This document shows positions 1 through 26,277 of a stretch of 64,000 nucleotides of DNA, one piece after another. Origin of the DNA: Luminiphilus sp. (lineage in GTDB: Bacteria > Pseudomonadota > Gammaproteobacteria > Pseudomonadales > Halieaceae). The DNA is taken from NCBI GenBank assembly GCA_965660865.1, contig CBFIBL010000029.1, forward strand, positions 10,233 through 74,232. The letters run 5' to 3'. A program made the position numbers and the translations under genes. The stretch's first letter is position 1, and every line of letters begins with the position of its first letter. The notes under the pieces are model-generated. The model saw nothing but the letters and a program-made list of their open reading frames with translations. It was not told where the DNA came from and searched no databases.

Positions 1-705
1 ACCCTCGCCAAGCTTATGGATGACCCTGAGAGCATCTCCAACAAGGCTTTCCCATTCGCGACAACCAAGGAAATCACGGTCTGCGGTATCAAGGTGTGGG
101 CCTTCCGCATTAGCTATGTCGGCGAGCAGGGCTGGGAGCTTTACTTCCCGTTTTCTGACGGCCTCGCTATCTGGGATGCGTTGTTCGAACTGGGTGTCAC
201 ACCCGTCGGCATTGAGACCTACGCCAACAGCCGGCGTCTTGAGAAGAGCTTACGGCTACAAAATGCCGACCTCGAGACCGATTACAACCTCTACGAGGCT
301 GCCCTCGCACGACCCAAGGTCAAAGCCGCTGATTTCCACGGTAAAGAGGCGTATGTGCAGCAGCGGGAACTCGACGAGCAAGCGGCCTATCTCTGCACAT
401 TGGTCCTCAAAGACACGACGGATAGCAACGGTGTTGTGCGCTACCCCATCGGTAACTGGCCAATCCTCGATCGGGAGTCGAAAGAAGTCCTCATCGATTC
501 GTACGGCCGGCGTTCGTACACCACAAGCATGTCCTTTGGACCCAGTCTTGGGGTAAACATCGCCATGGGTTACCTACCTGCCGACAAAGCGAATGAGGGT
601 GACATTGTGCTTATCGAGTACTTCGGCGAGAACTACGAGGCTGAGGTGATGAAGGTTGGCTATGGTGCACTTTTAGACCCAACAAACGAGCGACCAAAGA
701 GCTAA
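1..705 (+). CDS. 3' part of a GcvT/aminomethyltransferase-fold (tetrahydrofolate-binding) protein, most likely the C-terminal domain of a dimethylglycine/sarcosine-type FAD dehydrogenase; 5' end lies outside the window
   Basis: Frame is open from nt 1 (first ATG at 16). Translation has T-protein-like segments (RISYVGEQGWELYFP, GIETYANSRRLEKSLRL). TAA stop at 703-705, followed by a GC hairpin. Confidence 0.7.
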   Translation, partial: TLAKLMDDPESISNKAFPFATTKEITVCGIKVWAFRISYVGEQGWELYFPFSDGLAIWDALFELGVTPVGIETYANSRRLEKSLRLQNADLETDYNLYEAALARPKVKAADFHGKEAYVQQRELDEQAAYLCTLVLKDTTDSNGVVRYPIGNWPILDRESKEVLIDSYGRRSYTTSMSFGPSLGVNIAMGYLPADKANEGDIVLIEYFGENYEAEVMKVGYGALLDPTNERPKS

Positions 706-726: not shown

Positions 727-750
727 AAAAAAGGGGCCTCGGGCCCCTTT
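727..750. terminator. Bidirectional intrinsic terminator hairpin
   Basis: GGGGCC-tcg-GGCCCC stem-loop (733-747) flanked by an A-run (727-732) and TTT (748-750). Read on the minus strand it is followed by TTTTTT, so it can terminate both convergent units. Confidence 0.6.
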
Positions 751-974: not shown

Positions 975-2078
975 TTAGAATGAAGCCACTTCATTGGCGA
1001 ACACACCCTCGTCTGGCACCACACCCAAGCCAGGACCCGCAGGCACATCAATGTGACCATCGCGAATCACAATGCCATTTTTAGAATCGTAATGGCCTTC
1101 AATGTACGGCTGTGCCAACCAAACGCCCTGTAGGCGATTGGGAGCCACTGTTGCTCCCAGTTGAACACAAGCCGCTGCGATAATGTCTCCTCCCCATGAG
1201 TCATCGGAAGTGTGAGGCAAATTTCGCGCCTCACAGATATCCCTGAAAACAGACATTGGCTGTAAGCCACCAATTCGAGTCACTTTCATGCTGAAGCCGT
1301 CAGCAACACCTGAGCCTGCGACGCGCAACACTGTCGCCATATCAACAGCCGACTCATCGACAAACACCGGGTGATTGAGCATCGGCTTTACACTGGTTAT
1401 CTCCTCGAGCGAATCGCAAGGCTGTTCCAATACAAAGGGAATATCGGAACAGGCCTGACTCAACGTAATCGCATCGGCGGTTGTTAGCCCTCGGTTGCCA
1501 TCGACAGCGAGTCGCATACGGCCACCGACGGTCTCCCAAACTTTTCGAACAACAGCAATATCCTCAGCAACGGGCCTGCCGCCGATCTTTATCTGCATTC
1601 TGGGGTAACCCTCTGCGACCTTCTCCGCGGCAATTTTTGCAATATCGTCAGGCGTCCCAACGCCGCTTGCGTAATACGAGGGAACACGATTGACGGCGGC
1701 GCCGCCAAGCAGCGAGGCAACAGATCTTCCGGTCTTCTTACCGAGCGCATCAAATGCTGCGATATCGATTGCGGCCTTCGCATAGCGGTGCCCATTGAGT
1801 AGCGAGTTCATTTGGCGATGAAGTGTTAATGGTTCATCAAGCCTTGCGCCAATGAGGGACGGCGCCATCTCGATCAACGCCGCTCTGGCGCCCGATGCAT
1901 GACTCGGTGCATAAGTGGGTCCAACCGGACAGGTCTCTCCCCATCCAATGGTACCGCACTCGCTTTCCAACCTTACCAGCGTTGTATCGAGTTCATAGAC
2001 GGAGGCATTTGCCATCCGATAAGGGCCATTCTTTACCGGTAAATCGTGTTGGTAGATGCTGATCTTCTTAAGCTTCAT
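975..2078 (-). CDS. Enolase-superfamily enzyme (mandelate racemase/muconate lactonizing enzyme family, MLE-like; candidate amino-acid/betaine epimerase or hydroxyproline-type dehydratase)
   Basis: ATG at 2078 is Met47 of the 413-aa track ORF; the 46 upstream codons overlap the preceding SDR gene. Motifs: QIKIGG (strand-2 Lys), metal ligands [22 protein letters not shown] (strand-6 Lys). Confidence 0.8.
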
Positions 2079-2085
2079 AAGTGTC

Positions 2086-2838
2086 CTACTGCGCGACGTA
2101 CCCGCCGTCAACGGAGAGCACAGTGCCCGTGATGTGGCGTTGCTCAGACAGGAAAACAATCGCTGCCGCAACCTCCTCCGGCTCGGCGACACGCCCCATG
2201 GGAATACTCGACTCATTGCGTGTCACAACCGACGCTTCCATAGAGGGGTCATCATGCTCGGAGAAAAGCATGGGAGAATTAATTGCCCCCGGCGCTACCG
2301 CATTCACAGTGATGTCTCTCGAAGCCAATTCGAGAGCCATTGTTCGAGTCAGTTGATCGACAGCGCCTTTGCTCGCGCAATAAGCCGCTAAACCCGCAGC
2401 GCCTACCTGACCACACGTTGAGGAGACACTAACGATTGAGCTACCCGGAGGTGCCACCTTGACTGCAGCGCGGCTCAGATAAAAAACACCATCAACGTTC
2501 GTTGTCATTACGCGTTGCCACTCATCATCGGTGGTCGACTCTGCGGTTCTTCTGACGATGACACCCGCGGAATTCACGAGATCGATAGGCGCTACACCCA
2601 ATTGCTTTATGACTCGGGACAAAGCGTCGTCAGAAAAAGCTGACTCCGTGATATCACCCGCGCAAATGAGTATTTCGGCACCGTCATCGCGTGCAAGCTT
2701 TGACGCCGTAGCCTTTAACTTTTGCCTGTCGCGCCCAATCAACACACAGTGCGACCCGCGCGCTGCAAACGCCTTTGTGCAAGCGGCTCCAACACCACTT
2801 CCCGCACCGCTAATAATTGCTATCCGCCGTTGGCTCAT
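2086..2838 (-). CDS. Classical short-chain dehydrogenase/reductase (SDR)
   Basis: GAGSGVG dinucleotide-binding motif, NSAG, YCASK catalytic motif. 250 aa. 7-nt gap to the downstream gene. Confidence 0.85.
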
Positions 2839-2876
2839 TCTCGCGCCTCCTTGGACGCTTACCTCTAATGCCTAAT

Positions 2877-3629
2877 CTATAGGTTGGGGAGTGGTAGCTT
2901 GGCAAGTCGCCCACCGTCTACGACGAACTCCTGTCCAGTGACAAACCCCGACTCGCTGCTCGCCAACCAGAACACGGTATTTGCGACATCTTCAGGAAGA
3001 CCGAGGCGACCCACCGGATGAAGCGCTTCAATCGCCTCATCAACCGCCTGGCGATCTGGATAGGCCGCCAGTAGCTGCTCGTTAAATGGTGTATTAATCC
3101 AACCGGGAGCGACACTATTGCACCGAATACCCAAAGGCCCGTACTCGAGCGCGGTATTGTGAGTGAAGGCGGCAACCGCTGCCTTTGATGCGGCATAAAC
3201 GCTGTGCAATGGGTTTGCGCCCAGCCCTTCAATCGAACTGATGTTTACGATGGCCGGCGCAGTAGCGGCTGGGTTCGAGAGGAGTTTGCGTGCGTGCTTA
3301 GTCGTCAGGAATGTGCTCTTTACGTTGACCGCCATCACACGATCCCAGTCTTGCTCAGCAAGCTCATGGATTGGCGTCTCAACGCAAATCCCCGCGTTAT
3401 TCACGAGAACATCCAGGTGTCCAAGTTTCGCTTCAACCTGCGCCATCAAGGCAGAAACACTCGTCTCATCAGCAACATTGGTTTCGATGAAGGCAACGTT
3501 CGGATTTTCGGGCGCATTCAAATCAGCACAAATGACAGTATCACCTGCCTTCAGGAAGCGCTCCGCAATCGCCGCACCGATGTTTTGCGCGGCACCTGTG
3601 ACTAAGACAATCCGGGACGACGTGCTCAT
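2877..3629 (-). CDS. Classical short-chain dehydrogenase/reductase (SDR)
   Basis: TGAAQNIG, NNAG, YAASK motifs. 250 aa. 4-nt overlap with the upstream FAH gene. Confidence 0.85.
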   Translation of the reverse strand: MSTSSRIVLVTGAAQNIGAAIAERFLKAGDTVICADLNAPENPNVAFIETNVADETSVSALMAQVEAKLGHLDVLVNNAGICVETPIHELAEQDWDRVMAVNVKSTFLTTKHARKLLSNPAATAPAIVNISSIEGLGANPLHSVYAASKAAVAAFTHNTALEYGPLGIRCNSVAPGWINTPFNEQLLAAYPDRQAVDEAIEALHPVGRLGLPEDVANTVFWLASSESGFVTGQEFVVDGGRLAKLPLPNL

Positions 3630-4501
3630 ACGAAGGGAACAGGCGCTGAGTAATTGTTTTGTGGGCTAGTGACTACGCTGCGCTGACTTCCGAGTTTGTC
3701 GATCACAACCTCGACCACATCGCCCGGCTGCAGATACTGCTGTGGCCTCATGCCATATCCGACACCGGGGGGCGTACCGGTCATCAACACGTCGCCCGGC
3801 TGCCAGCTCACATAGTTGGATAAAATCGATACGAGTTCCGCAATGCTATACATCATGTCCGAGGTATTACTGGACTGCATCGTCTCACCGTTTACCTGAC
3901 AACTAATATCCAGCTGATTGGGATCACCTACCTCGTCTTTCGTGACTAGCCATGGACCAAGCGGCTTCAGCGTGTCAGCGCTTTTACCCTTGGTCCACTG
4001 AGAGCCACGCTCAAGCTGGAACACGCGCTCAGAAACATCATTACTCGTGCAAAAACCGGCAACGTAATTCATTGCGTCAGCAGCAGGAATGTTCTTGCCC
4101 GCTTGACAGAAAACCACAGCCAATTCAGCTTCCCAATCGAGCTGCGTGCCACCTTCGGGGATCACTATCGAATCAGTAGGTCCCGTAATTGCGCTCGCTG
4201 CGGTCAACATAAACATAGGCTCGGCGGGCGGCTCCATACCAGCTTCCGCCGCGTGCTTGCCGTAGGTCAGCGCGCAGCCGACTATTTTTCCAGGGCGGGA
4301 GATAGGCGCGCCTAATCGAGTATCCGCATCAAGCGCAGGAAGCGTGCTCAGGTCAACCGATCGGACTTGCTCAATTACCGAGGGCACTAGACTTCGGTAG
4401 TCCCAATCAGAAATTAACTCGCTGAGATCACGAATAACACCCGTGTCATCTATGACTCCTGGCTTCTCACTTCCTAATTCGCCGGCTCTTACCAATTTCA
4501 T
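3626..4501 (-). CDS. Fumarylacetoacetate hydrolase (FAH) family protein (2-keto-acid hydratase/hydrolase/decarboxylase type)
   Basis: Typical FAH-family layout (MKLVR... N-terminus, EAELAVV, TGTPPGVG). 4-nt overlaps at both ends. Confidence 0.8.
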   Translation of the reverse strand: MKLVRAGELGSEKPGVIDDTGVIRDLSELISDWDYRSLVPSVIEQVRSVDLSTLPALDADTRLGAPISRPGKIVGCALTYGKHAAEAGMEPPAEPMFMLTAASAITGPTDSIVIPEGGTQLDWEAELAVVFCQAGKNIPAADAMNYVAGFCTSNDVSERVFQLERGSQWTKGKSADTLKPLGPWLVTKDEVGDPNQLDISCQVNGETMQSSNTSDMMYSIAELVSILSNYVSWQPGDVLMTGTPPGVGYGMRPQQYLQPGDVVEVVIDKLGSQRSVVTSPQNNYSAPVPFV

Positions 4502-5472
4502 GCGTGCTTCTCCATTATTTGAGTAAATAGTGCGTCCAGTGAAATACCACGCGAACGCGCCGCCTCGAAAGTCGCCATTGTGTCCTCAACACCGCGCTTA
4601 ATGGAGCGGTACGGCTTGATCTGTAGCAAGGTATCTAAAGCCCCATCATCGTTATTGGCAGGAAATGGCATAGCGTCACCCGAAGCAGTCAACGCGACAT
4701 GAGGTGCATGTGCCCTGACAAGATCCAAGATCTGATCGACAGAGGCGGGTGTACCATTCATATCAAAGACGTGAGCACCCTCATAGTTCTTTGCTGCTGC
4801 TGCAATAAACCGCTGGGCTGCGTCCTCAACATGGACAAAAGCGACGTCGCCGGTGAAGGGCGTTTCGTAATCTCGCCCTGCTGACGCGGCGAGCATCGCT
4901 ATCGTCGGTGCCGAACTCATCCCTTGGTCGCGACCAGGCCCGTAGATAATGCCGGGACGAATGCCGACACTGGGAACCCCCCAGTCCTGCCAATAAACAG
5001 CTGCCATTTGCTCACCGCAGACTTTATGCGCACCATAGAGCGTCGATAAGGCGTTAGCAGACGTCATCGCTGGCGCAGCAATCGAACTCGCATAACTCAG
5101 CCGAGAAATGGACTGTTGCCTCGCCACTTCGAGAATATTGATACTGCCCATAACATTTATCTGGGTGCTACCAACCGGATCTGCCTTACAAAAAGGCACC
5201 TGCAACGCCGCAAGATGAATCACAGCTTCAACGCGATACTGTGCGCATACTGATCGCAGGCGCGCGTAGTCTGCAATATCACCGCACTCCCACGCCACAT
5301 CATCAGCGCCATCCATGATTAGGTTTAGCCGCTGACGATTTTCAACGATGTCAAAAACGACAGGATGCGCGCCAGACTCAGACAAAATCTTCACGACCCA
5401 CGCGCCGATACAGCCAGCAGCGCCAGTAACTAAGACCGATTTTCCCGTCAATACATGGGCGTGACTCATCAC
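4498..5472 (-). CDS. NAD-dependent epimerase/dehydratase family protein (extended SDR)
   Basis: TGAAGCIG Rossmann motif, YGAHK catalytic motif. 324 aa. Confidence 0.8.
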   Translation of the reverse strand: MMSHAHVLTGKSVLVTGAAGCIGAWVVKILSESGAHPVVFDIVENRQRLNLIMDGADDVAWECGDIADYARLRSVCAQYRVEAVIHLAALQVPFCKADPVGSTQINVMGSINILEVARQQSISRLSYASSIAAPAMTSANALSTLYGAHKVCGEQMAAVYWQDWGVPSVGIRPGIIYGPGRDQGMSSAPTIAMLAASAGRDYETPFTGDVAFVHVEDAAQRFIAAAAKNYEGAHVFDMNGTPASVDQILDLVRAHAPHVALTASGDAMPFPANNDDGALDTLLQIKPYRSIKRGVEDTMATFEAARSRGISLDALFTQIMEKHA

Positions 5473-6467
5473 GACTGCCTCCGTAATTTTTCGCTGAAGG
5501 CATTCAAACTTGCGACTGCCTCAGCCATTCTCTCCCCCAGTGCCTCGGGGTCATCCGACAGCCGGATATCATTCAATAGCGCGTCCAAACGAGCCGACGT
5601 CCGCCAAAGCTCGTGGCGCGCCAATTCAGGCCGAATCGCAGGGTCCTCCCAGTCGGCCATATTGAGCGTATTCGTCGAATCGTGCGCGGAAGCTGGCAAC
5701 ACTTCAAACGAGGGGATCATGGTGATGCGACTTGCGCGTTCGAGCAAACGACAGGCGCGATGGAAGATCATCGTTCCCTGTTGTAAAAAGCCATAACCGG
5801 CGTCAGGAAACGGAATCGTCGTTACCCGCTCTGACGGCAGTTGGGCGTCACGACCCTCCTCTCCCTCAATACCGAGTAATGCCTGTCCTTCTTGCTTAGT
5901 CCCTTGGAAGACTTGGAATTCGCCGCCTTTAAGGACATGCGGGTCGGTGACCATCATGACGATATCGAAGCCCACCGAATCCACATGCCAGGTATCGACG
6001 GCGCGCGTGATGTCCTCGGGTGCATAGTTTATGCCGCAGGCAACCGCAGGCACGGAATGTCTCCCAAGTCGCGTGCCTGCAATCTCTGACAGATGGGCTG
6101 CTAGTTCAGGGGAGTCACAAAAATTGCGGATGAACGTCGAGCGATAGCCCGCACCTCGCGCGTAGCTACCCAAGCGGTTTGCACCCGTACCCGCGCTTGC
6201 ATTACGGTTATCGTAAATTTGCTCACAGACGTGCCGCATTGCCTCAACACCTTCATCAGACAAGATACGGAAGGCTGAGCTGTAGGCAAAATCTGAGGCA
6301 AACCCCTCTAACTCGCTCTCTTGATAGCCCAATTCACCTAATTTAAATGTTTCACTAGGTAACCCCAGAGCAAGATGTTTGTTCGGATCGAAGGTGGGTT
6401 CGTCGACAAGCTGCTTGTAGGGATCCGGACGACCGGCTGGAAAAGGAAGTGCGTGGTCTTTATTCAT
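5469..6467 (-). CDS. Uncharacterised protein with a Fe(II)/2-oxoglutarate-oxygenase-like motif pattern
   Basis: H161-V-D163 (TWHVDS), GGEFQVF, distal H236 (MIFHRA) and R247-I-T 11 residues later. This matches the HxD...H...RxS spacing of double-stranded beta-helix oxygenases. No family recognised by name. Confidence 0.4.
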   Translation of the reverse strand: MNKDHALPFPAGRPDPYKQLVDEPTFDPNKHLALGLPSETFKLGELGYQESELEGFASDFAYSSAFRILSDEGVEAMRHVCEQIYDNRNASAGTGANRLGSYARGAGYRSTFIRNFCDSPELAAHLSEIAGTRLGRHSVPAVACGINYAPEDITRAVDTWHVDSVGFDIVMMVTDPHVLKGGEFQVFQGTKQEGQALLGIEGEEGRDAQLPSERVTTIPFPDAGYGFLQQGTMIFHRACRLLERASRITMIPSFEVLPASAHDSTNTLNMADWEDPAIRPELARHELWRTSARLDALLNDIRLSDDPEALGERMAEAVASLNAFSEKLRRQS

Positions 6468-6496
6468 ACAGCCTAGTCCTCTCTGAGAAGGTTTAG

Positions 6497-8515
6497 CTAG
6501 CCGCGACGGCGTCGTCTGCGAGGCGCTTCAAGCGCATCAGACGCCTTCTGTGCCGGCCGCTCGATAACGGAGAATAGATGCGAGAACGGATCTGACTTAT
6601 GGGGAAACGCCATGGCGGCGACGAAATAATCCTGAAAATCTGTCTCCGTTGCCGTCTCGATACGCTCAGCCTTGTTGACAGTGCGCTGGATACTCTCGCG
6701 TGCACCATGATCCAAAAGAGCGATTCGCGCCCCAACACCTGCGGCATTTCCGGCGGACGAGACATGATGGAGCGAGCAATCCGGTATCAATCCAAGCACC
6801 ATGGCGTGCTCAACGCTGATATGACTCCCAAAGGCACCAGCAAGGCGGATACGATCCACCGCGGAGACCTCCATCTTGTCCATGAGTAATTTAATACCAG
6901 CGTAGAGTGCAGCTTTTGCGAGCTGGATCTGACGTACGTCGTTTTGCGTCACGACGATATCGCGCTGAGACTCATCCTCGGCAAAATGCAACACATAAGA
7001 CCAGGTGCGGCCATGGGCGCGAACGCGTGACGTGCGCTTGGCGAGCGCTCCGTCAACAATGCCGTCCTCTGAAATAATGCCTGCAAGAAACATTTCGGCG
7101 ATTACCTCGATAATGCCAGAGCCGCAGATACCCGTAATACTTAGATCGCGGGTCGACTCACTGAAATCGGCATCGGTAGACCAAAGCTCCGATCCAATCA
7201 CTCTGAATTTAGGCTCGAGGGTTTCACGATCGATTCGCACTCGTTCAATTGCCCCAGCAGTGGCCCGCTGCCCTGCGCTGATCTCACCTCCCTCGAAAGC
7301 GGGCCCTGTCGGACTTGAGCAAACCAATAGTCGGTCTTTATTGCCCAGAACGATTTCTGCATTAGTGCCCACATCGACAATCAAACTCATGGCATCATCG
7401 GTATCGGGACTCTCAGCTAGAATCACACCTGCGGTGTCCGCACCTACATGACCTGCAATACAGGGCAGTACGAAAAGCCGTGCTTGCTTGTGTGCATCCA
7501 GCCCCAAATCAGTTGCCTTCAGCGTTACCGCCTCGTCGACCGTCAGCGCAAACGGGGCTCCCCCCAAATTGACCGGGTTAATGCCCAGAACCAAATGGTG
7601 CATGATTGGATTGGCGACTAGCGAGATCTCCAATATATTATCGGTGGTCTCGCCCAGCTGATCCGTAAGCTCTACAAACAGTTTGCTAAGCGCAGTCTGA
7701 ATCGCAGCGCTCATCGCCTCAGCACCCTCGGGGTGCATCATGATGTAACTCACGCGACTCATGAGATCTTCGCCAAACGGAATCTGCGGGTTCATCACGC
7801 TCGCTGATGCGAGCACATCGCCTGTGGCAAGGTCACACAGGTGTGCCGCAACTGTGGTGGACCCCACATCAACTGCGACGCCTCGGGGTGATTCAAACAG
7901 GCCCGACCAGATGCCTATTATCTTTCGAGATTCAAAGACGGCAACAGTTACGCCACGATCACCCGACGCAAGAGCAGTTTGGAGATTTACAAGTTCAGAC
8001 GTCTCTATCGCTAAATCAGTAAGCTCCCAATCTTTCGCCAGTGCTTCAAGTAAGAGCTTTGACTCACCCCGCGCATCCTCAAGCGTCGACTCGGGCAGCG
8101 TTACAAAATACAAGCGAGTTGCCGTATTCAGCTGAATATCGCGATGCTCGGCGTCTTTACGGATAATTTGACGATGTACCTGACTTTCGGGAGGCACATC
8201 GATAATCACGTCGTCGAGTAATTCAGCATGGCAACTCAGGCGTCGCCCCTCAGGGAGAGGACCTTTTCGCTCGTTAAATTTAACTTCGGTTGCAACAAGT
8301 GGAGAGAGATGCTCCGGACTCGAGGTCATCTTGTGCTTCTGAAACGTCCCGGACATGCAGGCGATCTGACAACGACCGCACAGACCGCGACCCCCGCAGA
8401 CCGAGTCGATGTCAACGCCGAGTATTCGAGCAGCCTCGAGCAGTCGGGTGTGCTTTGCAAACTCGCCCCGCTTTCCCGATGGCAAAAAGAGTACTTTGAC
8501 CTGCTCGACAGACAC
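6497..8515 (-). CDS. Corrinoid reductive activator (RACo/RamA-like): N-terminal [2Fe-2S] ferredoxin domain fused to an ASKHA ATPase domain
   Basis: CGGRGLCGRC ferredoxin motif near the N-terminus. Long ASKHA-type body (VDVGSTT..., VDVGTNAE..., GICGSG). 672 aa. Sits directly downstream of the methyl-corrinoid:THF methyltransferase. Confidence 0.8.
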   Translation of the reverse strand: MSVEQVKVLFLPSGKRGEFAKHTRLLEAARILGVDIDSVCGGRGLCGRCQIACMSGTFQKHKMTSSPEHLSPLVATEVKFNERKGPLPEGRRLSCHAELLDDVIIDVPPESQVHRQIIRKDAEHRDIQLNTATRLYFVTLPESTLEDARGESKLLLEALAKDWELTDLAIETSELVNLQTALASGDRGVTVAVFESRKIIGIWSGLFESPRGVAVDVGSTTVAAHLCDLATGDVLASASVMNPQIPFGEDLMSRVSYIMMHPEGAEAMSAAIQTALSKLFVELTDQLGETTDNILEISLVANPIMHHLVLGINPVNLGGAPFALTVDEAVTLKATDLGLDAHKQARLFVLPCIAGHVGADTAGVILAESPDTDDAMSLIVDVGTNAEIVLGNKDRLLVCSSPTGPAFEGGEISAGQRATAGAIERVRIDRETLEPKFRVIGSELWSTDADFSESTRDLSITGICGSGIIEVIAEMFLAGIISEDGIVDGALAKRTSRVRAHGRTWSYVLHFAEDESQRDIVVTQNDVRQIQLAKAALYAGIKLLMDKMEVSAVDRIRLAGAFGSHISVEHAMVLGLIPDCSLHHVSSAGNAAGVGARIALLDHGARESIQRTVNKAERIETATETDFQDYFVAAMAFPHKSDPFSHLFSVIERPAQKASDALEAPRRRRRRG

Positions 8516-8524
8516 GTCTGCGCG

Positions 8525-9421
8525 TTAGCCCCTTCGACGACCCGAACGACCGCGACGCGCGCCAGCCCCTTCCGGTGCGGGCTCACGATAAGCTTTGATC
8601 CAGTTAGCACAGTCAGGATCGTGTCCCATCATGACATCGCCACCTCTCACGGCCTGCATCACTTCAGCGTGCAGTGGACTCGTAATCGCAGACGTTATAC
8701 CCGCACCCATCGCCATGGTGAGGAATGCTGCATTGATACCGTTTCGATTAGGGAGACCAAAGCTTACGTTTGACGCGCCACAAGTCGTATTGACCTTGAG
8801 TTCTGTACGAAGGCGACGAACTAACTCCATGACCTGGACACCCGCTTGGTTGATAGCACCAATCGGCATGACAAGTGGATCGACGACAACATCTTGGTGC
8901 GAAATACCGTAGTCGGCTGCGCGCTCGACAATCTTCTTGGCTACGTTGAACCGTTCGTTCGGGTCCTCCGAAATGCCGGTCTCGTCATTTGAGATAGCCA
9001 CAACAGCAGCCCCATACTTAGCCACGAGAGGGAGCACTCGCTCGAGGACTTCGTCCTCACCCGTTACCGAATTCACCAAGGCTTTACCTTGATAGACGGA
9101 AAGCCCTGACTCCAACGCTTCCACAATTGAGGAATCAATACTTAAGGGGACGTCAGTGACCGACTGAACAAGTTGCACAGCCTCCGCGAGAATTCGAGGC
9201 TCATCAGCGAGTGGAATACCTGCGTTCACATCCAGCATATGCGCACCTGCAGCAACCTGCGCAAGCGCATCAGCCTCAACACGGCTGTAATCACCGTTTT
9301 TCATTTCTTCAGCAAGAATCTTGCGTCCAGTGGGGTTAATGCGCTCGCCGATAACCACGAATGGTTGATCAAAACCGATACGAACTTCTTTTGTGGCCGA
9401 GCTAATTATGGTTGTGGTCAT
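8525..9421 (-). CDS. Pterin-binding methyltransferase (methyl-corrinoid:tetrahydrofolate methyltransferase, MtgA/AcsE/MetH-module-like)
   Basis: Pterin_bind-type TIM-barrel sequence (VIGERINPTGRK, LDVNAG, SIDSS, NSV, CGASNVSFGLP). I prefer the ATG at 9421, preceded by GGAGAC; the track ORF extends to ATG 9457. Confidence 0.8.
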   Translation of the reverse strand: MTTTIISSATKEVRIGFDQPFVVIGERINPTGRKILAEEMKNGDYSRVEADALAQVAAGAHMLDVNAGIPLADEPRILAEAVQLVQSVTDVPLSIDSSIVEALESGLSVYQGKALVNSVTGEDEVLERVLPLVAKYGAAVVAISNDETGISEDPNERFNVAKKIVERAADYGISHQDVVVDPLVMPIGAINQAGVQVMELVRRLRTELKVNTTCGASNVSFGLPNRNGINAAFLTMAMGAGITSAITSPLHAEVMQAVRGGDVMMGHDPDCANWIKAYREPAPEGAGARRGRSGRRRG

Positions 9422-9457
9422 GAGTGTCTCCGATGCACTTATTTTCTTGACGTGCAC

Positions 9458-9499
9458 GCCTGTTATTAAATATCTACTGCCTGTTATTAACTATTTACT
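9458..9499. repeat. Tandem 21-bp direct repeat (2 copies, 19/21 identical) in the largest gap inside the cluster
   Basis: gcctgttattaaatatctact / gcctgttattaactatttact. Lies immediately upstream (minus sense) of the pterin-binding methyltransferase start. Confidence 0.9.
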
Positions 9500-9582
9500 G
9501 ATAGTCGGCTAACTACAGCTTGACCGAGTACCGGGCTGCTCTTAAGTCGCGATGTGTAACGTCTCAGAGCCCGAGATGCAAG

Positions 9583-9888
9583 CTAATTCGCGTCTTCAAA
9601 TCCTTTGTTTTTGATCCAGTTGGCGAGCATCTCATCAGTCACCTCGGACTCAATTTTTTTACCTATCTCAACGGCAAGATCTTGCGCACTTAAATCCGAC
9701 TCGATCGAGGTTGTGATCCGTCGCCACTCCTCGAGATAAGCGTCGCTCCCGCCCTTACCCGCGCGCATGGCCGCTCGATCAATAGCCGCCTGAAACCGAT
9801 GCTCTAATAAGTATTTTCCGCGCTCCCTCCCTCTTTTGATCAAAACTTGCGAAGGAATATCCCGCCAATAAACATCAATTCGTTGCAC
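9583..9888 (-). CDS. Small conserved protein (101 aa), function unknown. From memory, homologues beside DUF1638/corrinoid genes are often auto-annotated as 'virulence factor' family.
   Basis: Uninterrupted ORF in operon context between DUF1638 and the pterin-binding methyltransferase. No catalytic motif recognised. Confidence 0.5.
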   Translation of the reverse strand: MQRIDVYWRDIPSQVLIKRGRERGKYLLEHRFQAAIDRAAMRAGKGGSDAYLEEWRRITTSIESDLSAQDLAVEIGKKIESEVTDEMLANWIKNKGFEDAN

Positions 9889-9910
9889 GCGTTACTACCC
9901 CCTCACATAT

Positions 9911-10585
9911 TCAACAAACAGCTATCAGTTGAGCCTCTAGGCTATCGGACAGCGAGCCATAACCGGTGTCGATCACCTCAAGTGGAAGTCCCAATCTTTC
10001 AGCCGCTGCCGTTGCTGCGTCGCGCAATGTAGCGTCAACCGTTTGGGCGAGATATACCACTTTCCGGTAATGCCCAAATAGCATCTCCTCTAGCTCGGGA
10101 TGATCGTCAAGTTTCATATCGTCGATGACTAACCGATCAAAATGACGCGCTAAAAAATCAGTCAGATAAAACGTTCCCGGCTCGGCTTCAGCGAGCCTTC
10201 GAAAAACGTCAGTGGTCGCGTAGAATTCGTAACAATGAGCACCGGGAAGTCGCTCAGCACCAAAACGCCTAGCCACGCGATCGACACCGCCACCTGTGCC
10301 GCATTCAGCATAGGCAATGACAATCTTTTCGTAATTGGAATGAAGCTTTTCCAGCGCCTGCGCAAGCTGCTCTGCAATCCGCTCTGGGCGGTTGTGTAAA
10401 GCGGCGTCCAAACACTGAACGTCGACGCTTGACCAACTGTTGGCCTTTTTAAGTGCGGTAATCTCGGCCGCGAGCGCGCCGCAGCCGATGATCAAGACGC
10501 GCGACAAGTTCGTTAGCCTTGAGCGACGCGACGCTCTTCGACGAGTCGAACCGCCGTGACCGCTGCCTCTGCTGCATCGCGACAA
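9911..10585 (-). CDS. DUF1638 domain protein (accessory protein of corrinoid methyltransferase clusters)
   Basis: LIIGCGALAAE..., AYAECGTGG, PGAHCYEF segments as recalled for DUF1638. The only ATG (10585) gives a 73-nt overlap with the corrinoid-protein gene. TTG at 10507 is an alternative start. Confidence 0.65.
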   Translation of the reverse strand: MSRCSRGSGHGGSTRRRASRRSRLTNLSRVLIIGCGALAAEITALKKANSWSSVDVQCLDAALHNRPERIAEQLAQALEKLHSNYEKIVIAYAECGTGGGVDRVARRFGAERLPGAHCYEFYATTDVFRRLAEAEPGTFYLTDFLARHFDRLVIDDMKLDDHPELEEMLFGHYRKVVYLAQTVDATLRDAATAAAERLGLPLEVIDTGYGSLSDSLEAQLIAVC

Positions 10586-11208
10586 TAAGCGTCAGCACCG
10601 ACCGCATCACCAAACTCCTCGTTAAGCGGTGCTCCACCGACCATCACAATATAATCATCGCGTATGCCCTGCTCTTTCAGCGCGTCAATGACGACCTTCA
10701 TATAAGGCATGGTCGTGGTCAGAAGTGCCGACATACCTAAAATGTCTGGCTTGTGACGCTCTAACGCAGCGACGTAGTCTTCAACCGCGTTATTGATTCC
10801 TATATCAAAGACCTCAAAACCCGCACCTTCCATCATCATCGCAACGAGGTTCTTGCCGATATCGTGGATGTCGCCTTTTACCGTCCCAATCACCATTGTG
10901 CCTACGGGTTTCGCTCCCGTCTCGGCAAGCAGCGGTCGCAAAATAGCCATACCACCTTTCATGGCGTTAGCTGCCAGCAACACCTCTGGTACAAACAAGA
11001 TCCCGTCTCGAAAGTCGATGCCTACGATCGTCATCCCATCGACAAGCGCCTTACTCAACACCTGTTCAGCTGACCAACCGCGCTCGAGCAGGATATTTGT
11101 GCCTTCTTCTATTTCTTCCTTGAGCCCGTCGTACAAATCGTCGTGCATCTGAAGGACGAGATCGTCGTCAGAAAGCTCCGAAAGGATGATATCTTCTTCA
11201 TCGGACAT
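10513..11208 (-). CDS. Cobalamin-binding corrinoid protein (MtgC/MttC-like)
   Basis: B12-binding DxHxxG motif (GDIHDIGKN), SxL (MSALLTT), GG (VMVGGAP). N-terminal helical cap domain. 231 aa. Confidence 0.85.
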   Translation of the reverse strand: MSDEEDIILSELSDDDLVLQMHDDLYDGLKEEIEEGTNILLERGWSAEQVLSKALVDGMTIVGIDFRDGILFVPEVLLAANAMKGGMAILRPLLAETGAKPVGTMVIGTVKGDIHDIGKNLVAMMMEGAGFEVFDIGINNAVEDYVAALERHKPDILGMSALLTTTMPYMKVVIDALKEQGIRDDYIVMVGGAPLNEEFGDAVGADAYCRDAAEAAVTAVRLVEERRVAQG

Positions 11209-11232
11209 TATTGGTATCTCCCCTTTAATCGC

Positions 11233-12774
11233 CTAGTAGTCTCTGTCGGCGAAAGATGCTTTTTCACGCGCCATAAAGTCTAACAGTGCCTCGTCGATCG
11301 CTGGATCTAGTGCGGGGGGCTCGTAATCTCCCAGCATTTTCTTCCAAACGCCATTCGCTCGCTGTGCCGCATCAAGGCTGCCTTCAGCGGACCACTGCTC
11401 AAAGCTGTTGTTATCGGCAATGGTCGACCGATAAAACGCGGATTCAAAATTGCTCAAGGTATGCGCCGACCCCAGGAAGTGCTTACCAGGTCCCACTTCA
11501 TGGAAGGCCTCCATAGCTTGCGCATTCTCTGAGAGATCCATTCCATCAAGGAGGACTGCAAGCATGCTTGCCTGATCACAGTCCATAACAAACTTTTCGT
11601 AGCCCATCGCAAGACCGCCCTCGAGCCAGCCTGCGGTGTGCAACATAAAATTCACCCCAGCAAGTGCCGCTGTCTGCAAGGTGTTGGCGGCTTCATAGGC
11701 CGCCTGTGCATCGGGCAATTTAGAACCAGTGAGACCACCACCACTTCGGTAGGGCACGCCAAGACGGCGCGCCAGTGCGGCAGTCGCGTAAATCACTTGG
11801 CTGGGCTCAGGTGTACCGAAAGTTGGCGCGCCGGTCGCCATGGACACAGCAGCCGCGAAGGTACCAAATACAACCGGGCAGCCCGGACGAATCAACTGTG
11901 TCAGCGCAATACCTGCCATCGCCTCGGCCAGAATTTGCGTACACGTTCCCGCGACGGTGACAGGTGACATAGCTCCCGCCAAGATAAAGGGTGAAACAAC
12001 ACAGGCCTGATTATTGCGTGCATAGACCTTGAGCGATCCCAGCATGGTGCCATCGAACACCATGGGCGAATTTACGTTAATCAGACTCGTAAAAACGCAG
12101 TTCTGATCAACAAACTCTTCACCGAACACTAGCTTCGCCATGTCTACCGAATCCTGAGCACGGCGATAGTGTGTGACCGACCCCATGAGTGGCTTATCAC
12201 TGTATTTAAAGTGGCTATAAACCATGTCGTAGTGGCGTTTGTTTACCGGCAGATCAACAGGCTCACAAACGGTACCACCTGAGTGATGAATGCCCGGCGC
12301 CATGTAGGCCAGCTTCACAAAATTACGGAAATCTTCAATCGTTGAGTAGCGCCGGCCATTGTCTAGGTCATGCGCAAAGGGCGGTCCGTAGGCGGGCACC
12401 AGTACTGTATTTTTACCACCAATGGTCACGCTGCGCTCTGGGTTGCGAGCATGCTGAACGTACTCTGAGGGCGCTGTAGCCTGAATAATTTGACGGCACA
12501 TACCGCTTGGAAAGCGAACGCGAGTGCCGTCTACACTTGCGCCCGCAGCTTTGAAGAGCTCGAGCACTTCTGGGTCATCGAGGAAATCGATACCCACCTC
12601 TTCCAAGAGTTTATCCGCGTTGTCCTCAATGAGTTGAAGCCCCTCTTCACTGAGGATTTCAAGTAAGGGAATCTTTCGCTTGATGTAGGGTGCTGCGACA
12701 GATCCTGAGTTCGCTCTCGCCTCACGTCGGCCGGCGCGGCCGCCGCCTTTTCGTCTTCCTGCTCTCTCAGTCAT
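11233..12774 (-). CDS. Trimethylamine methyltransferase (MttB) superfamily protein, non-pyrrolysine type; substrate:corrinoid methyltransferase for an unassigned quaternary amine
   Basis: 513-aa uninterrupted ORF with no in-frame TAG. MttB-family length and sequence character. Arg/Gly-rich N-terminus (RAGRRKGGGRAGRREAR), which I recall being frequent in proteobacterial members. First gene of the cluster. Confidence 0.8.
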   Translation of the reverse strand: MTERAGRRKGGGRAGRREARANSGSVAAPYIKRKIPLLEILSEEGLQLIEDNADKLLEEVGIDFLDDPEVLELFKAAGASVDGTRVRFPSGMCRQIIQATAPSEYVQHARNPERSVTIGGKNTVLVPAYGPPFAHDLDNGRRYSTIEDFRNFVKLAYMAPGIHHSGGTVCEPVDLPVNKRHYDMVYSHFKYSDKPLMGSVTHYRRAQDSVDMAKLVFGEEFVDQNCVFTSLINVNSPMVFDGTMLGSLKVYARNNQACVVSPFILAGAMSPVTVAGTCTQILAEAMAGIALTQLIRPGCPVVFGTFAAAVSMATGAPTFGTPEPSQVIYATAALARRLGVPYRSGGGLTGSKLPDAQAAYEAANTLQTAALAGVNFMLHTAGWLEGGLAMGYEKFVMDCDQASMLAVLLDGMDLSENAQAMEAFHEVGPGKHFLGSAHTLSNFESAFYRSTIADNNSFEQWSAEGSLDAAQRANGVWKKMLGDYEPPALDPAIDEALLDFMAREKASFADRDY

Positions 12775-13186: not shown

Positions 13187-13232
13187 GTGGTCGCCGGTGT
13201 AATTGTCCAAACTGTTTAAAAGGGGCAACTTA

Positions 13233-14315
13233 GTGTCAAAGCGAATTGCTGTCGTAGGTGCTGGTGTAAATGGGACGTCGATCGCAACAGCCTGTGCAAA
13301 CCGCGGTTTTGAGGTGGCCCTTTTCGACGCTGGCACTCCATTTGCACAGACCAGCAGTAAGTCATCTCGCATGCTTCATGGTGGAATTCGCTATCTAGAG
13401 CAAGGGCATATCAAGCTCGTCAGAGAGGCACTCATCGAGCGCGACGAGTGGCGCCGTCTCGCCCCTGGCGCGACCCGCGTTCAGCGATTCTTTTTTCCCA
13501 TCTACAGTGATTCATCGCGGGGTCGTGCGACATTATTTGCAGGCAGCCTCTTGTATCAGTGGCTTGCAGGAAGGTACTCGCTTGGCGGAAGTCGCCTCCA
13601 CACCAAACACGATCTGCTTGCGCACTTTCCAGACTTGAGGTCGGAGAAATTGAAGGGCGGGGTTAGCTACTGTGATCTTGTGATGGATGATCAGGCCTTA
13701 GCGGATATCTTGATTGACGAGGCTCGCTCATCAGGCGTCATCATCCACCCACATACCCGCGTCTCCGGGCTAACAACCAACGGAAGGCTAACAGTAAATG
13801 GCGACGTATCATCGTTTGATCACGTGATCAACGCAGCGGGACCCTGGGTAAGTGAGGTACTAACCAAAGCAAAAATTGACTCAAAATTCGAAATTGAACA
13901 CGTGCGGGGCTCGCATCTTTTGCTGGAGCTAACCCTCCCCAACGCGCTCGTGTTTCAGGTTCCTAGCGATAACCGTATCGTCTTCTGCATCCCTCAGACA
14001 GCGAATGAGGTGCTCCTTGGTACTACCGAGCACGCTCATCAGCTGGCTGATCCCATTGAGTGCAGCGAGGCTGAGATAGACTACCTATTGGCGTTGCTAA
14101 ACAACCATATTGAGACTCCCGTGACTCGAGATCACGTCACAGCCACATTGTCTGGCGTTCGTCCGATCGCCAAAGTAAAGCACTCGCAGCTCTCCAATAT
14201 GAGTACCGCAAGCCGGGATTCGGAGATCGAAATCATTGGTTCGCTTATCAACATATTTGGGGGTAAGTGGACGTCAGCGCGGCGCCTTGGGCAAAGGGTA
14301 GCTGCCTTGATTTGA
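13233..14315 (+). CDS. FAD-dependent oxidoreductase, GlpD (glycerol-3-phosphate dehydrogenase)-like but lacking the C-terminal domain
   Basis: GTG at 13233 preceded by AAAAGGGG. VVGAGVNG FAD motif, SSKSSRMLHGGIRYLE as in GlpD. Ends just after GGKWTSAR. Confidence 0.7.
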   Translation: MSKRIAVVGAGVNGTSIATACANRGFEVALFDAGTPFAQTSSKSSRMLHGGIRYLEQGHIKLVREALIERDEWRRLAPGATRVQRFFFPIYSDSSRGRATLFAGSLLYQWLAGRYSLGGSRLHTKHDLLAHFPDLRSEKLKGGVSYCDLVMDDQALADILIDEARSSGVIIHPHTRVSGLTTNGRLTVNGDVSSFDHVINAAGPWVSEVLTKAKIDSKFEIEHVRGSHLLLELTLPNALVFQVPSDNRIVFCIPQTANEVLLGTTEHAHQLADPIECSEAEIDYLLALLNNHIETPVTRDHVTATLSGVRPIAKVKHSQLSNMSTASRDSEIEIIGSLINIFGGKWTSARRLGQRVAALI

Positions 14316-14404
14316 AAATGCGGCATGGCTAGCTTTAATCGGTTAGTGTCTCAACATCTCAACCCTGCAAATTGCCACTCGCCGCAAAAAGGAGATTAAA
14401 AAAG

Positions 14405-14785
14405 ATGATCACAGCACTCTATGCCAGCCTACTAGCGCTTTGGCTCGTGTTTCTATCGTTCCGAGTAATTGCCCTTCGTGGTAGTCCCGTGTTCGCCTTT
14501 CTGAACATCAACACCGACGACGAAGAGATGCTGCAGCGCGCGGTTCGAGCACACGGGAACCTAACCGAATACGCTCCGATGATGGTGATCCTTCTCTACC
14601 TGCTCGAGCAAAGCAGTGCAAATCCCAGCACACTGCATGCGTTGGGGCTCAGCTTTCTCGCGGGGCGATTGATGCACGGGATTTGCTTTGGATTTTTGCG
14701 CTCGAGCATGCCGCTCAGAATTGGAGGTACCGTGCTTACGCTTACTCCACTTCTCAGCGCCGCAGCACTGCTGCTCTTGCAATAG
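14405..14785 (+). CDS. MAPEG-family small membrane protein
   Basis: ATG at 14405 preceded by AAAGGAG. About 126 aa with hydrophobic helices. RAHGN..EY segment typical of the MAPEG family. Confidence 0.55.
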   Translation: MITALYASLLALWLVFLSFRVIALRGSPVFAFLNINTDDEEMLQRAVRAHGNLTEYAPMMVILLYLLEQSSANPSTLHALGLSFLAGRLMHGICFGFLRSSMPLRIGGTVLTLTPLLSAAALLLLQ

Positions 14786-14890: not shown

Positions 14891-14923
14891 CACTCACAAG
14901 TCACTCACAACTCATTCACAACG
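14891..14923. repeat. Imperfect 11-bp tandem repeat x3 overlapping the LPMO stop codon
   Basis: cactcacaagt / cactcacaact / cattcacaacg. Confidence 0.7.
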
Positions 14924-16528: not shown

Positions 16529-16759
16529 AAAAAGACCCCTTTTAACGAGTAGTCAGTTGCTCGGTAACCGTTCGACCCATGTCTATGGGCACTGGCTTTG
16601 CGTCCCCGCGTTACCACGGGTTTGCCTTTTAGACCTTCAGAATAGGACGTTGCTCCCAACTTGTAAAATAATAATGAGGAAAATAACGATCACCGGAGTG
16701 TAGGTAGGCAACACTAAGCTGAATGTGAGACACGCTGAATAACAGACAAGGTGTTGCTA

Positions 16760-26064: not shown

Positions 26065-26277
26065 GCGTGCAACGCGCAGCGTTGATGAAGACTGCAACGC
26101 GAATTTTTTGTGACAAACCGCGCTTCCAGATCAAGCACAACGGGGAATCCAGGTAACCGTAAACCTCCTCTGAGACTCATAGCTTCAGTCACTGATAGCA
26201 CGGGACTGTCGATTTCTGCGTACTTTTCATATCCTATGGGAACTTGGACAAATTATGTTCAATACATGGAGGAAGAC

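Follow-up and report, generated by a model that had tools for sequence, protein, structure and literature searches.

What does a corrinoid-dependent methyl-transfer system do next to a set of oxygenase, dehydrogenase, hydrolase and epimerase genes, and why should the two share one gene cluster? This question is raised by a 64,000-nucleotide stretch of Luminiphilus sp. (assembly GCA_965660865.1, contig CBFIBL010000029.1), called the window below, in which twelve consecutive open reading frames (ORFs), every one on the minus strand, fill positions 975-12774. Luminiphilus belongs to the Halieaceae (OM60/NOR5), an aerobic marine group. With moderate confidence, we read the cluster as a composite betaine-catabolism island of two probably co-transcribed modules: an MtgBCD-type module (6497-12774) for B12-dependent demethylation, and a block module (975-6467) that would open proline betaine or 4-hydroxyproline betaine to pyruvate and dimethylglycine. 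Gene content, conservation, modularity and betaine context are directly supported, and from them we infer the substrates, the order of the steps and the products.

The downstream block and its probable betaine epimerase

The block consists of five genes, for an Fe(II)/2-oxoglutarate (2OG) oxygenase-like protein (Oxy), an extended short-chain dehydrogenase/reductase (SDR), an FAH-family hydrolase and two classical SDRs (SDR_a and SDR_b), and is followed in the window by a gene for an MLE-type enolase-superfamily enzyme. Pfam and NCBIfam confirmed the domain assignments that the initial annotation had made for all twelve proteins of the cluster.

The enolase gives the clearest hint of the substrate. 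Its best PDB matches are the structures of Paracoccus denitrificans HpbD (4e8g/4izg/4j1o, 2e-159), followed by 4h2h/2pmq (3e-133), and it is about 68% identical to the P. denitrificans enzyme as estimated from the alignment. Its K164, K265, D193, E218 and D241 align with K164, K266, D194, E219 and D242 of that enzyme, and its D292 and W320 with the published betaine-binding Asp293 and the conserved Trp of GVW(V/L)AQPY (PMC3950512). The MLE-subgroup fold, the Lys-Lys acid/base pair, the Asp/Glu/Asp metal site and the betaine-binding Asp and Trp are thus all present. Judged by these catalytic, metal and betaine-binding residues, the enolase is an orthologue of the HpbD-type 4-hydroxyproline betaine 2-epimerase/proline betaine racemase, as had been supposed at the outset. 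The cluster resembles the HpbD pathway of Pelagibaca bermudensis, P. denitrificans and Rhodobacter sphaeroides (PMC3950512) in this orthologous epimerase and in the betaine transporters and LysR regulators of related loci. In the known pathway, however, Rieske HpbB/C and a second demethylase act before the (hydroxy)proline routes (PMC3950512), whereas the genes that accompany HpbD here encode an Fe/2OG oxygenase, three SDRs and an acylpyruvate-type hydrolase. Neither Rieske HpbB/C nor HpbA demethylases were seen in the cluster or in its neighbours among the genes annotated in the first 28 kb of the window.

The FAH protein is closest to L-2,4-diketo-3-deoxyrhamnonate hydrolase (LRA6; PDB 8gsr, 1.9e-79), which cleaves R-CO-CH2-CO-COO- to pyruvate and R-COO-. 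Against NCBIfam NF053535 it scored 331 bits, below the cut-off of 500, and is a close relative of that enzyme and not an equivalog. The comparison extends to the LRA5/LRA6 non-phosphorylative pathways for L-rhamnose and L-fucose (and pentose route III), in which a 4-hydroxy-2-oxo acid is oxidised and then hydrolysed to pyruvate and a carboxylate; the FAH gene of the block is likewise flanked by SDR genes, and the last two steps proposed below copy this logic. On the other hand, sugar-handling genes are absent, the FAH protein stays below the equivalog cut-off, and the proposed carboxylate is an N-methylated glycine.

Oxy belongs to a small marine family of 377 clusters at 90% identity, whose members are mostly unnamed or "hypothetical". 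It matched PF23169 (HalD) with 24.5 bits, under the gathering score of 26, and many of its homologues have a precomputed match to the same family. Searches of the PDB by single sequence and by profile returned no relative, just a chance match to IMPDH. The AlphaFold2 model (pLDDT 79.8) gave 51 PDB fold matches at E<=1e-3, of which the top 50 listed are nearly all Fe/2OG enzymes with the double-stranded beta-helix. All 24 homologues compared have H161-V-D163, H236 and R247, the putative metal-binding triad and 2OG-binding Arg. The HxD form implies a hydroxylase. Oxy shares the fold, the weak PF23169 match and the HxD motif with the BesD/HalD halogenases/hydroxylases. It differs from them by an identity of 13-17%, by an extra helical C-terminus of about 60 residues, and by its catabolic context, theirs being biosynthetic.

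The extended SDR has the motifs GAAGCIG and YGAHK and weak PDB relatives (UDP-glucose 4-epimerase and L-threonine 3-dehydrogenase, 1e-14), while SDR_a carries NNAG and YAASK, and SDR_b SGAGSGVG and YCASK. Searches of PDB and NCBIfam found no specific characterised relative for any of the three.

Conservation and separability of the block

An alignment of Oxy homologues was scanned against one genome per species, which gave 72 loci. The order Oxy, extended SDR, FAH, SDR, SDR is complete in 42 of the 49 loci with enough downstream sequence, and HpbD comes directly after it in 19 of 41 loci and lies upstream beside it in three more. The hosts are Halieaceae, Porticoccaceae/SAR92, Arenicella, sponge-symbiont Gammaproteobacteria, Hellea/Litorimonas, Paracoccaceae and Polaribacter, spanning Gammaproteobacteria, Alphaproteobacteria and Bacteroidota.

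It had been asked whether the two halves of the cluster occur together in related genomes at all. They do: the junction between the MttB module and the block recurs in three arrangements, in Luminiphilus, in Halioglobus (with a spacer) and in one metagenome-assembled genome (MAG) of Hellea. As a general rule the co-occurrence holds only in part, being recurrent in Halieaceae, though the RACo-type activator gene lies directly upstream of Oxy in no more than 12 of the 51 loci with at least 3 kb of upstream sequence, all of them Luminiphilus/Halieaceae; 14 of the 51 have this gene at some place in the locus. Conversely, locus L083, from a close relative, has the genes for MAPEG and the DAO flavoprotein, a run from MttB to RACo and the convergent dimethylglycine-dehydrogenase (DMGDH)-like gene, and the six downstream genes are absent. 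Its RACo, pterin-binding protein and flanking gene product are 93%, 96% and 93% identical to those of the window, and DNA synteny between the two is lost from about position 6587 down to 704, which brackets the block. The two modules are separable, as shown by this locus with the same flanks and no block and by the majority of block loci without an adjacent RACo gene.

The MttB of L083 (10001-11542) is just 83% identical to that of the window and has an aberrant stretch at the position of Y97 (VARIPCW----CQ), which may reflect a frameshift, an assembly error or a decaying gene.

The upstream module is an MtgBCD-type system

The MttB protein carries PF06253 over residues 10-508 (9e-229), and its ORF of 513 aa is uninterrupted. 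With a full-length PF06253 TIM barrel and no in-frame UAG, it falls in the non-pyrrolysine MttB superfamily. Its best PDB matches are a Sinorhizobium homologue (4yyc, 6e-223) and Desulfitobacterium hafniense MtgB (2qne/9yce, about 1e-127), to which the similarity is strong and full-length, although the host here is aerobic; the trimethylamine methyltransferase MttB reached just 3e-34. The corrinoid protein has a DIHDIG motif at residue 113, and its best NCBIfam match is MtgC_2 (2e-59, under its cut-off). The pterin-binding protein passed the cut-off of NCBIfam PRK07535 (366 bits against 259), and the RACo-type activator has its Cys cluster at residues 40, 46, 49 and 53. An Rfam model for the pyrrolysine insertion sequence of mttB (PYLIS_3) also matched inside the MttB ORF (11634-11733, minus strand, 44.6 bits, gathering score 38). 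Since the ORF has no in-frame stop, this match reflects homology of coding sequence, which is likely a source of false PYLIS annotations.

MttB-family systems had been regarded as limited to anaerobes, which is outdated. In 2025, the aerobe Ruegeria pomeroyi was reported to need a set of a pfam06253 MtgB, a corrinoid MtgC, a pterin-binding MtgD, RamA and DUF1638 to catabolise glycine betaine (Mausz et al., 2025; PMC12478193). For mtgC and mtgD the evidence given there is genetic, and for the remaining components it comes from proteomics. The paper also gives DUF1638 the role of a corrinoid reactivation partner and places the set in marine Alpha-, Gamma- and Deltaproteobacteria, where it often shares an operon with metF2 and dimethylglycine/sarcosine genes. 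In the window, MtgB, MtgC, MtgD, the RamA-like activator and DUF1638 lie contiguously in 6497-12774, and this domain set bears out the earlier view of the upstream half as a complete system for corrinoid methyl transfer. Moreover, Co(I) chemistry beside an O2-dependent enzyme had been taken as an anomaly. It is no surprise, because the MtgBCD set is found in aerobic marine bacteria, including R. pomeroyi, and in Halioglobus a TmpA-like dioxygenase comes after the same module.

The upstream module thus compares well with the aerobic marine MtgBCD/split methionine synthase system of R. pomeroyi and Phaeobacter inhibens: the components are the same, and they are operonic. Of the genes associated with that system, a DMGDH-like one flanks the cluster, and sister Luminiphilus loci carry a metF2-like MTHFR. 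The window itself has no metF2-like MTHFR gene and has a 161-nt gap instead, and a constant 101-aa PF13769 protein is present. Most other Luminiphilus loci have genes for DUF5981 and the metF2-like MTHFR between the PF13769 and pterin genes, which is the position of the gap (9422-9582). The gap is kept in L007 and L083, relatives that likewise lack metF2, and in the window it carries a tandem duplication of about 20 nt, with TTAATAACAGGC occurring twice; it might mark a past deletion or hold an internal regulatory site. The homocysteine-binding module MtgE was not seen among the annotated genes in the first 28 kb of the window.

The 101-aa PF13769 protein recurs in the MttB modules of L008-L027, L081, L082 and L083. 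It is constant in all proteobacterial MtgBCD modules that we examined, where it lies between DUF1638 and metF2 or the pterin gene, and is not among the components named in the available part of PMC12478193.

Substrate of the MttB enzyme

In D. hafniense MtgB, glycine betaine is contacted by Y97 and F356 (cation-pi) and by R312 and H348 (carboxylate), and the F356L variant has a Km raised several hundred-fold (PMC13080624). Three of the four contacts, Y97, R312 and H348, are kept in the MttB of the window, which has a Trp four residues upstream of the F356 position. Orthologues at 77-85% identity occur without the block: in L081 the gene for FTHFS follows, and in L082 the MttB gene lies between carnitine genes (BKACE, 3HCDH, BCCT) and genes for GcvT, DMGDH, GFA and SoxB. 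These block-free orthologues beside FTHFS or beside carnitine and DMGDH/Sox genes suggest a glycine-betaine-type enzyme. The context therefore favours glycine betaine as the substrate, and we describe the protein as MtgB-like and not as a proven member of MtgB.

The MtgB binding-site residues were also tried as a way to tell a glycine-betaine from a proline-betaine enzyme and were dropped, since the signature is identical across orthologues of every context.

Betaine genes around the block

The neighbours of the block point robustly to a quaternary-amine module. A BCCT transporter gene is the commonest neighbour (22 of 69 loci), replaced in the sponge-symbiont loci by an OpuAC-type ABC transporter, and genes for DMGDH, SoxBDAG, a GbcA-like Rieske protein and LysR regulators recur nearby. 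In Hellea balneolensis, for example, the block is bordered on one side by genes for BCCT, DAO, GcvT, a LysR regulator and a GbcA-like Rieske protein, and on the far side by SoxGADB and a DMGDH-like gene. The order in Halioglobus is the MttB module, then genes for the TmpA-like dioxygenase, an HD-domain (TmpB-like) protein and GFA, and after these BCCT and the block.

TmpA/TmpB-like genes were found in L036, L056 and L053. The TmpA-like 2OG dioxygenase (GBBH-like_N and TauD; 6128-8191 in L036, 18019-19752 in L053) stands beside MttB modules together with the HD-domain protein, and matched NCBIfam TmpA with 236 bits, under the cut-off of 400. Characterised TmpA/TmpB convert trimethylaminoethylphosphonate to glycine betaine (PMC10574752). 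This neighbourhood suggests that breakdown of trimethylaminoethylphosphonate to glycine betaine may be wired to B12-dependent demethylation.

Two other features of the block loci were noted. A gene for a TonB-dependent receptor and a TPR/Sulfotransfer_3 gene adjoin the block as a pair in L024, L032, L036, L045, L053, L055-L057, L061 and L063 (Hellea, Halioglobus and Polaribacter), and several Hellea loci have a small SAM-methyltransferase gene between the block and BCCT.

Proposed route

In our reading, MtgBCD would be a hub around which feeder genes cluster, namely those for carnitine, those for trimethylaminoethylphosphonate and the block. With glycine betaine as the most probable methyl donor, the MttB enzyme would methylate the corrinoid protein in its Co(I) state, the pterin-binding enzyme would move the methyl group from the corrinoid to tetrahydrofolate, and RACo and DUF1638 would re-reduce the oxidised cofactor, leaving dimethylglycine as the product of this module. 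The block would act directly on an imported quaternary amine. The most likely substrate is proline betaine and/or 4-hydroxyproline betaine, because the catalytic and betaine-binding residues of HpbD are all kept. HpbD would interconvert the C2 epimers and so supply the accepted one, Oxy would hydroxylate the ring, at C4 of proline betaine or at the carbon beside N+, and SDRs would oxidise the hydroxyl groups. A 4-oxo betaine, being a beta-ammonio ketone, would then ring-open by beta-elimination of the ammonium group; alternatively, hydroxylation at C2 would give a betaine that collapses to the 2-oxo acid. With a further SDR step, either branch would lead to 5-(dimethylamino)-2,4-dioxopentanoate, which the LRA6-like FAH enzyme could cleave to pyruvate and N,N-dimethylglycine. 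Both modules would in this way feed the flanking dimethylglycine-dehydrogenase-like enzyme; dimethylglycine as a product fits the dimethylglycine/sarcosine genes beside the block and the convergent DMGDH-like gene. Whether the five conserved genes and HpbD together amount to an undescribed cyclic-betaine route, which needs no N-demethylation, opens the ring at a C-N bond, yields pyruvate and dimethylglycine and was recruited in Halieaceae into a B12-dependent glycine-betaine operon, is a more tentative matter, and we advance this full version only as a possibility.

Several points weigh against the island as we read it. The gene contents rest on a tblastn matrix and on simple ORF calling and clustering of our own, and many contigs are truncated. 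The FAH gene, on which the last step depends, is absent in L031, L055 and L068, and HpbD is missing in roughly half of the loci. The simplest scheme strictly needs one SDR, which leaves the roles of the extended SDR and the other SDR over. The best folds for Oxy are amino-acid hydroxylases/halogenases of the BesD/HalD family, with modest scores (E 1e-5, TM 0.38-0.55), and the position of hydroxylation is not deducible from such matches to a model. In MttB, F356 is replaced by Gly (AGWLEGGL versus AGILQYFM in MtgB), so that specificity for glycine betaine is no more than likely, and the roomier pocket could take a bulkier betaine. Finally, in the Hellea MAG L053, an MttB paralogue and an OYE-type flavoprotein directly follow the block, which suits a route that starts with demethylation. 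This flavoprotein presumably shares its domain layout with the N-methylproline demethylase StcD.

Such a demethylation-first route is what the initial annotation had proposed, with a quaternary amine losing a methyl group before its skeleton is processed. In specific terms, MttB would be an MtpB-like enzyme for proline or hydroxyproline betaine that transfers one methyl group to tetrahydrofolate, and the block would degrade the N-methyl imino acid, for example to sarcosine and pyruvate. The direct adjacency and probable co-transcription of the modules suit this sequence of events, as does the recurrent junction, for which L053 is the best support; furthermore, the replacement of F356 would enlarge the pocket, and a dedicated enzyme would be needed, because MtgB itself barely uses proline betaine. 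Yet the Gly signature is common to every proteobacterial orthologue examined, including those of L081 and L082 with no block and, in L082, with carnitine and dimethylglycine genes around them; L083 has the MttB module with identical flanks and no block, and in Porticoccaceae/SAR92 the block stands without a nearby demethylase. Moreover, HpbD binds a quaternary betaine, and in most taxa its gene shares an operon with the block instead of with MttB, so that the betaine itself would seem to be what enters the block. With separable modules and an MttB in glycine-betaine-type contexts, demethylation before attack on the skeleton is not the best-supported order, and we regard it as rather unlikely; a hub with feeders that converge on dimethylglycine or glycine betaine fits better.

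The block could also serve another trimethylammonium compound, such as a hydroxylated C5-C7 betaine (delta-valerobetaine, or a derivative of trimethyl-lysine or -ornithine), from which FAH would free glycine betaine or another betaine along with pyruvate for MtgBCD downstream. The block does occupy a feeder position like that of carnitine BKACE in L082 and of the TmpA/TmpB-like genes, free lysine and ornithine are the substrates of structural relatives of Oxy, and enzymes of the GbcA-like Rieske or MtgB type are found repeatedly in the vicinity of the block. Such a substrate would leave no role for the most frequent accessory gene, an HpbD orthologue with a full betaine cage, unless it had an alpha-betaine centre, and the block has no aminotransferase or deaminase for an alpha-amino group, so that we hold this to be slightly less probable still than the demethylation-first route. 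The FAH protein invites a third comparison, since its nearest relative is L-2,4-diketo-3-deoxyrhamnonate hydrolase and SDRs accompany that enzyme in sugar pathways: the block might be a non-phosphorylative pathway for deoxy-sugar acids of the L-rhamnose/L-fucose type, unrelated to betaines and next to MttB by accident. We find this very improbable and rejected it on the HpbD orthologue and the betaine-gene neighbours. The enolase is an HpbD orthologue and not a sugar-acid dehydratase, the cluster has no lactonase, and among the annotated recurrent neighbour families, most singleton ORFs being unannotated, there is no sugar transporter, lactonase or sugar dehydrogenase; the neighbours in three bacterial classes are BCCT/OpuAC transporters and dimethylglycine/sarcosine genes.

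Novelty and possible meaning

The upstream system is already known, and its junction with the block is a lineage-specific variant. On the other hand, the five-gene block, with members that all belong to known superfamilies, is credible as a new catabolic route. The downstream module and its junction with MttB had been called undescribed, and this view is supported as far as the open-access literature goes: we found there no account of the block or of that junction, no paper tying MttB to HpbD or hydroxyproline betaine, and no description of a 2OG/SDR/FAH route for proline betaines. The available part of PMC12478193 does not mention the six-gene downstream block.

Betaines are major osmolytes, and marine bacteria exchange carbon and nitrogen with algae and animals in this form. 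Degradation of proline and hydroxyproline betaine by the known routes begins with Rieske demethylases. If our reading is true, the block would be a third solution, a conserved and horizontally mobile module in which the carbon skeleton is attacked first and dimethylglycine enters the C1 network. The route would be present in the marine heterotrophs OM60/NOR5, SAR92/Porticoccaceae, Hellea, Polaribacter and sponge symbionts, and a new Fe/2OG oxygenase family would gain a function, as would about five genes now named "hypothetical" or "SDR" in abundant marine taxa. The window also illustrates how the aerobic MtgBCD hub gathers feeders (for carnitine, for trimethylaminoethylphosphonate, and the block) into single operons. 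Cultured strains with the block exist and allow direct tests of the pathway.

Layout and transcription signals of the cluster

The coordinates of the cluster and of its flanks are given in Table 1. The twelve minus-strand ORFs and their tight junctions are as first annotated, including the 161-nt gap and the hairpin-free 29-nt junction. SDR_a and SDR_b are 38 nt apart, and SDR_b and the enolase gene 7 nt if the latter starts at ATG 2078; its longest ORF (975-2216) runs into SDR_b, and ATG 2078, giving 367 aa, is almost certainly the start. The remaining junctions are overlaps of 4, 4 and 1-4 nt and spacers of 9, 22, 5 and 24 nt. For DUF1638, an upstream start had been given as ATG 10585, but this codon reads TTG, and public gene calls (L001) take the TTG at 10507. 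The ATG of the pterin gene at 9421 is preceded by a conserved GGAG.

Both modules are probably transcribed together in this window, judging from the 29-nt junction, with a sequence like a ribosome-binding site and no hairpin, and from the position of the sole strong hairpin with a T-run (730-750), which lies beyond the last gene, 225 nt past the enolase stop. The same hairpin sits 25 nt past the convergent DMGDH-like gene and is a probable bidirectional terminator shared by the twelve-gene unit and that gene. A consensus scan of the cluster for promoters and terminators gave site counts no higher than in shuffled sequence, and the terminator scan missed even this obvious hairpin. No cobalamin or other riboswitch was found upstream of MttB by an Rfam scan.

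The layout is not an artefact of assembly, as the arrangement recurs in independent assemblies: it is found on the public metagenome contigs L001-L006, each of which encodes an identical oxygenase-like protein, and at about 95% identity in the Luminiphilus MAG L007.

Table 1. Positions of the genes and other elements of the cluster and of its flanks in the window
Feature	Position	Strand	Basis
MttB-superfamily substrate:corrinoid methyltransferase, non-pyrrolysine, MtgB-type, 513 aa	11233..12774	-	PF06253
Corrinoid (B12-binding) protein, MtgC-type, 231 aa	10513..11208	-	PF02607 + PF02310
DUF1638 protein, 198 aa, TTG start 10507	9911..10507	-	PF07796 at 2e-29
PF13769 ("Virulence_fact") protein, 101 aa	9583..9888	-	PF13769 at 1e-14
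Intergenic gap, 161 nt	9422..9582	no strand	gene-order maps
Pterin-binding methyl-corrinoid:tetrahydrofolate methyltransferase, MtgD-type, 298 aa	8525..9421	-	PF00809 at 5e-30
RACo/RamA-type reductive activator, [2Fe-2S] + ASKHA, 672 aa	6497..8515	-	Fer2, RACo_linker, Raco_middle, RACo_C_ter
Junction between the two modules, 29 nt	6468..6496	no strand	Shine-Dalgarno-like GAGAGGA, no hairpin
Fe(II)/2-oxoglutarate oxygenase-like protein (Oxy), 332 aa	5469..6467	-	weak PF23169 HalD
Extended SDR (NAD-dependent epimerase/dehydratase family)	4498..5472	-	PF01370 at 9e-30
FAH-family hydrolase, LRA6-like	3626..4501	-	PF01557 at 1e-65
Classical SDR, SDR_a	2877..3629	-	adh_short_C2 at 1e-62
Classical SDR, SDR_b	2086..2838	-	adh_short_C2 at 1e-51
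HpbD orthologue (MLE-type enolase superfamily), 367 aa	975..2078	-	MR_MLE N- and C-terminal domains
Hairpin, 9-bp GC-rich stem and 3-nt loop, then T-run	730..750	-	likely terminator
C-terminal part of convergent DAO-FAO_M-GCV_T protein (dimethylglycine/sarcosine-dehydrogenase-like, ~860 aa)	1..705	+	GCV_T + GCV_T_C
Divergent GlpD-like DAO flavoprotein	13203..14315	+	Pfam, NCBIfam
MAPEG protein	14372..14785	+	Pfam

Flanking genes and other features of the window

A GcvT-fold protein and a GlpD-like flavoprotein had been placed at the two ends of the cluster, and both were recovered. The former is the C-terminus of the DMGDH-like protein: the fragment at 1-705 is 95% identical to an 862-aa ORF in L007 and 93% to an 856-aa gene product in L083. 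On the other side, the pair of DAO and MAPEG genes also stands upstream of MttB in the block-free L083, and this flank travels with the MttB module.

Farther from the cluster, a c-di-GMP-I riboswitch (16560-16636, minus strand, 58 bits) lies directly upstream of the gene for a secreted LPMO10/GbpA_D3/CBM5_12 protein (14912-16528, minus strand), an arrangement that we presume to resemble that of Vibrio GbpA. A tryptophan-halogenase-family gene (19969-21597, minus strand) is near a TonB-dependent receptor gene (23036-26020, plus strand), with a prolyl-oligopeptidase-family gene downstream (26110-28233). The pairing of tryptophan halogenase and TonB receptor is common in marine Gammaproteobacteria and is unrelated to the cluster.

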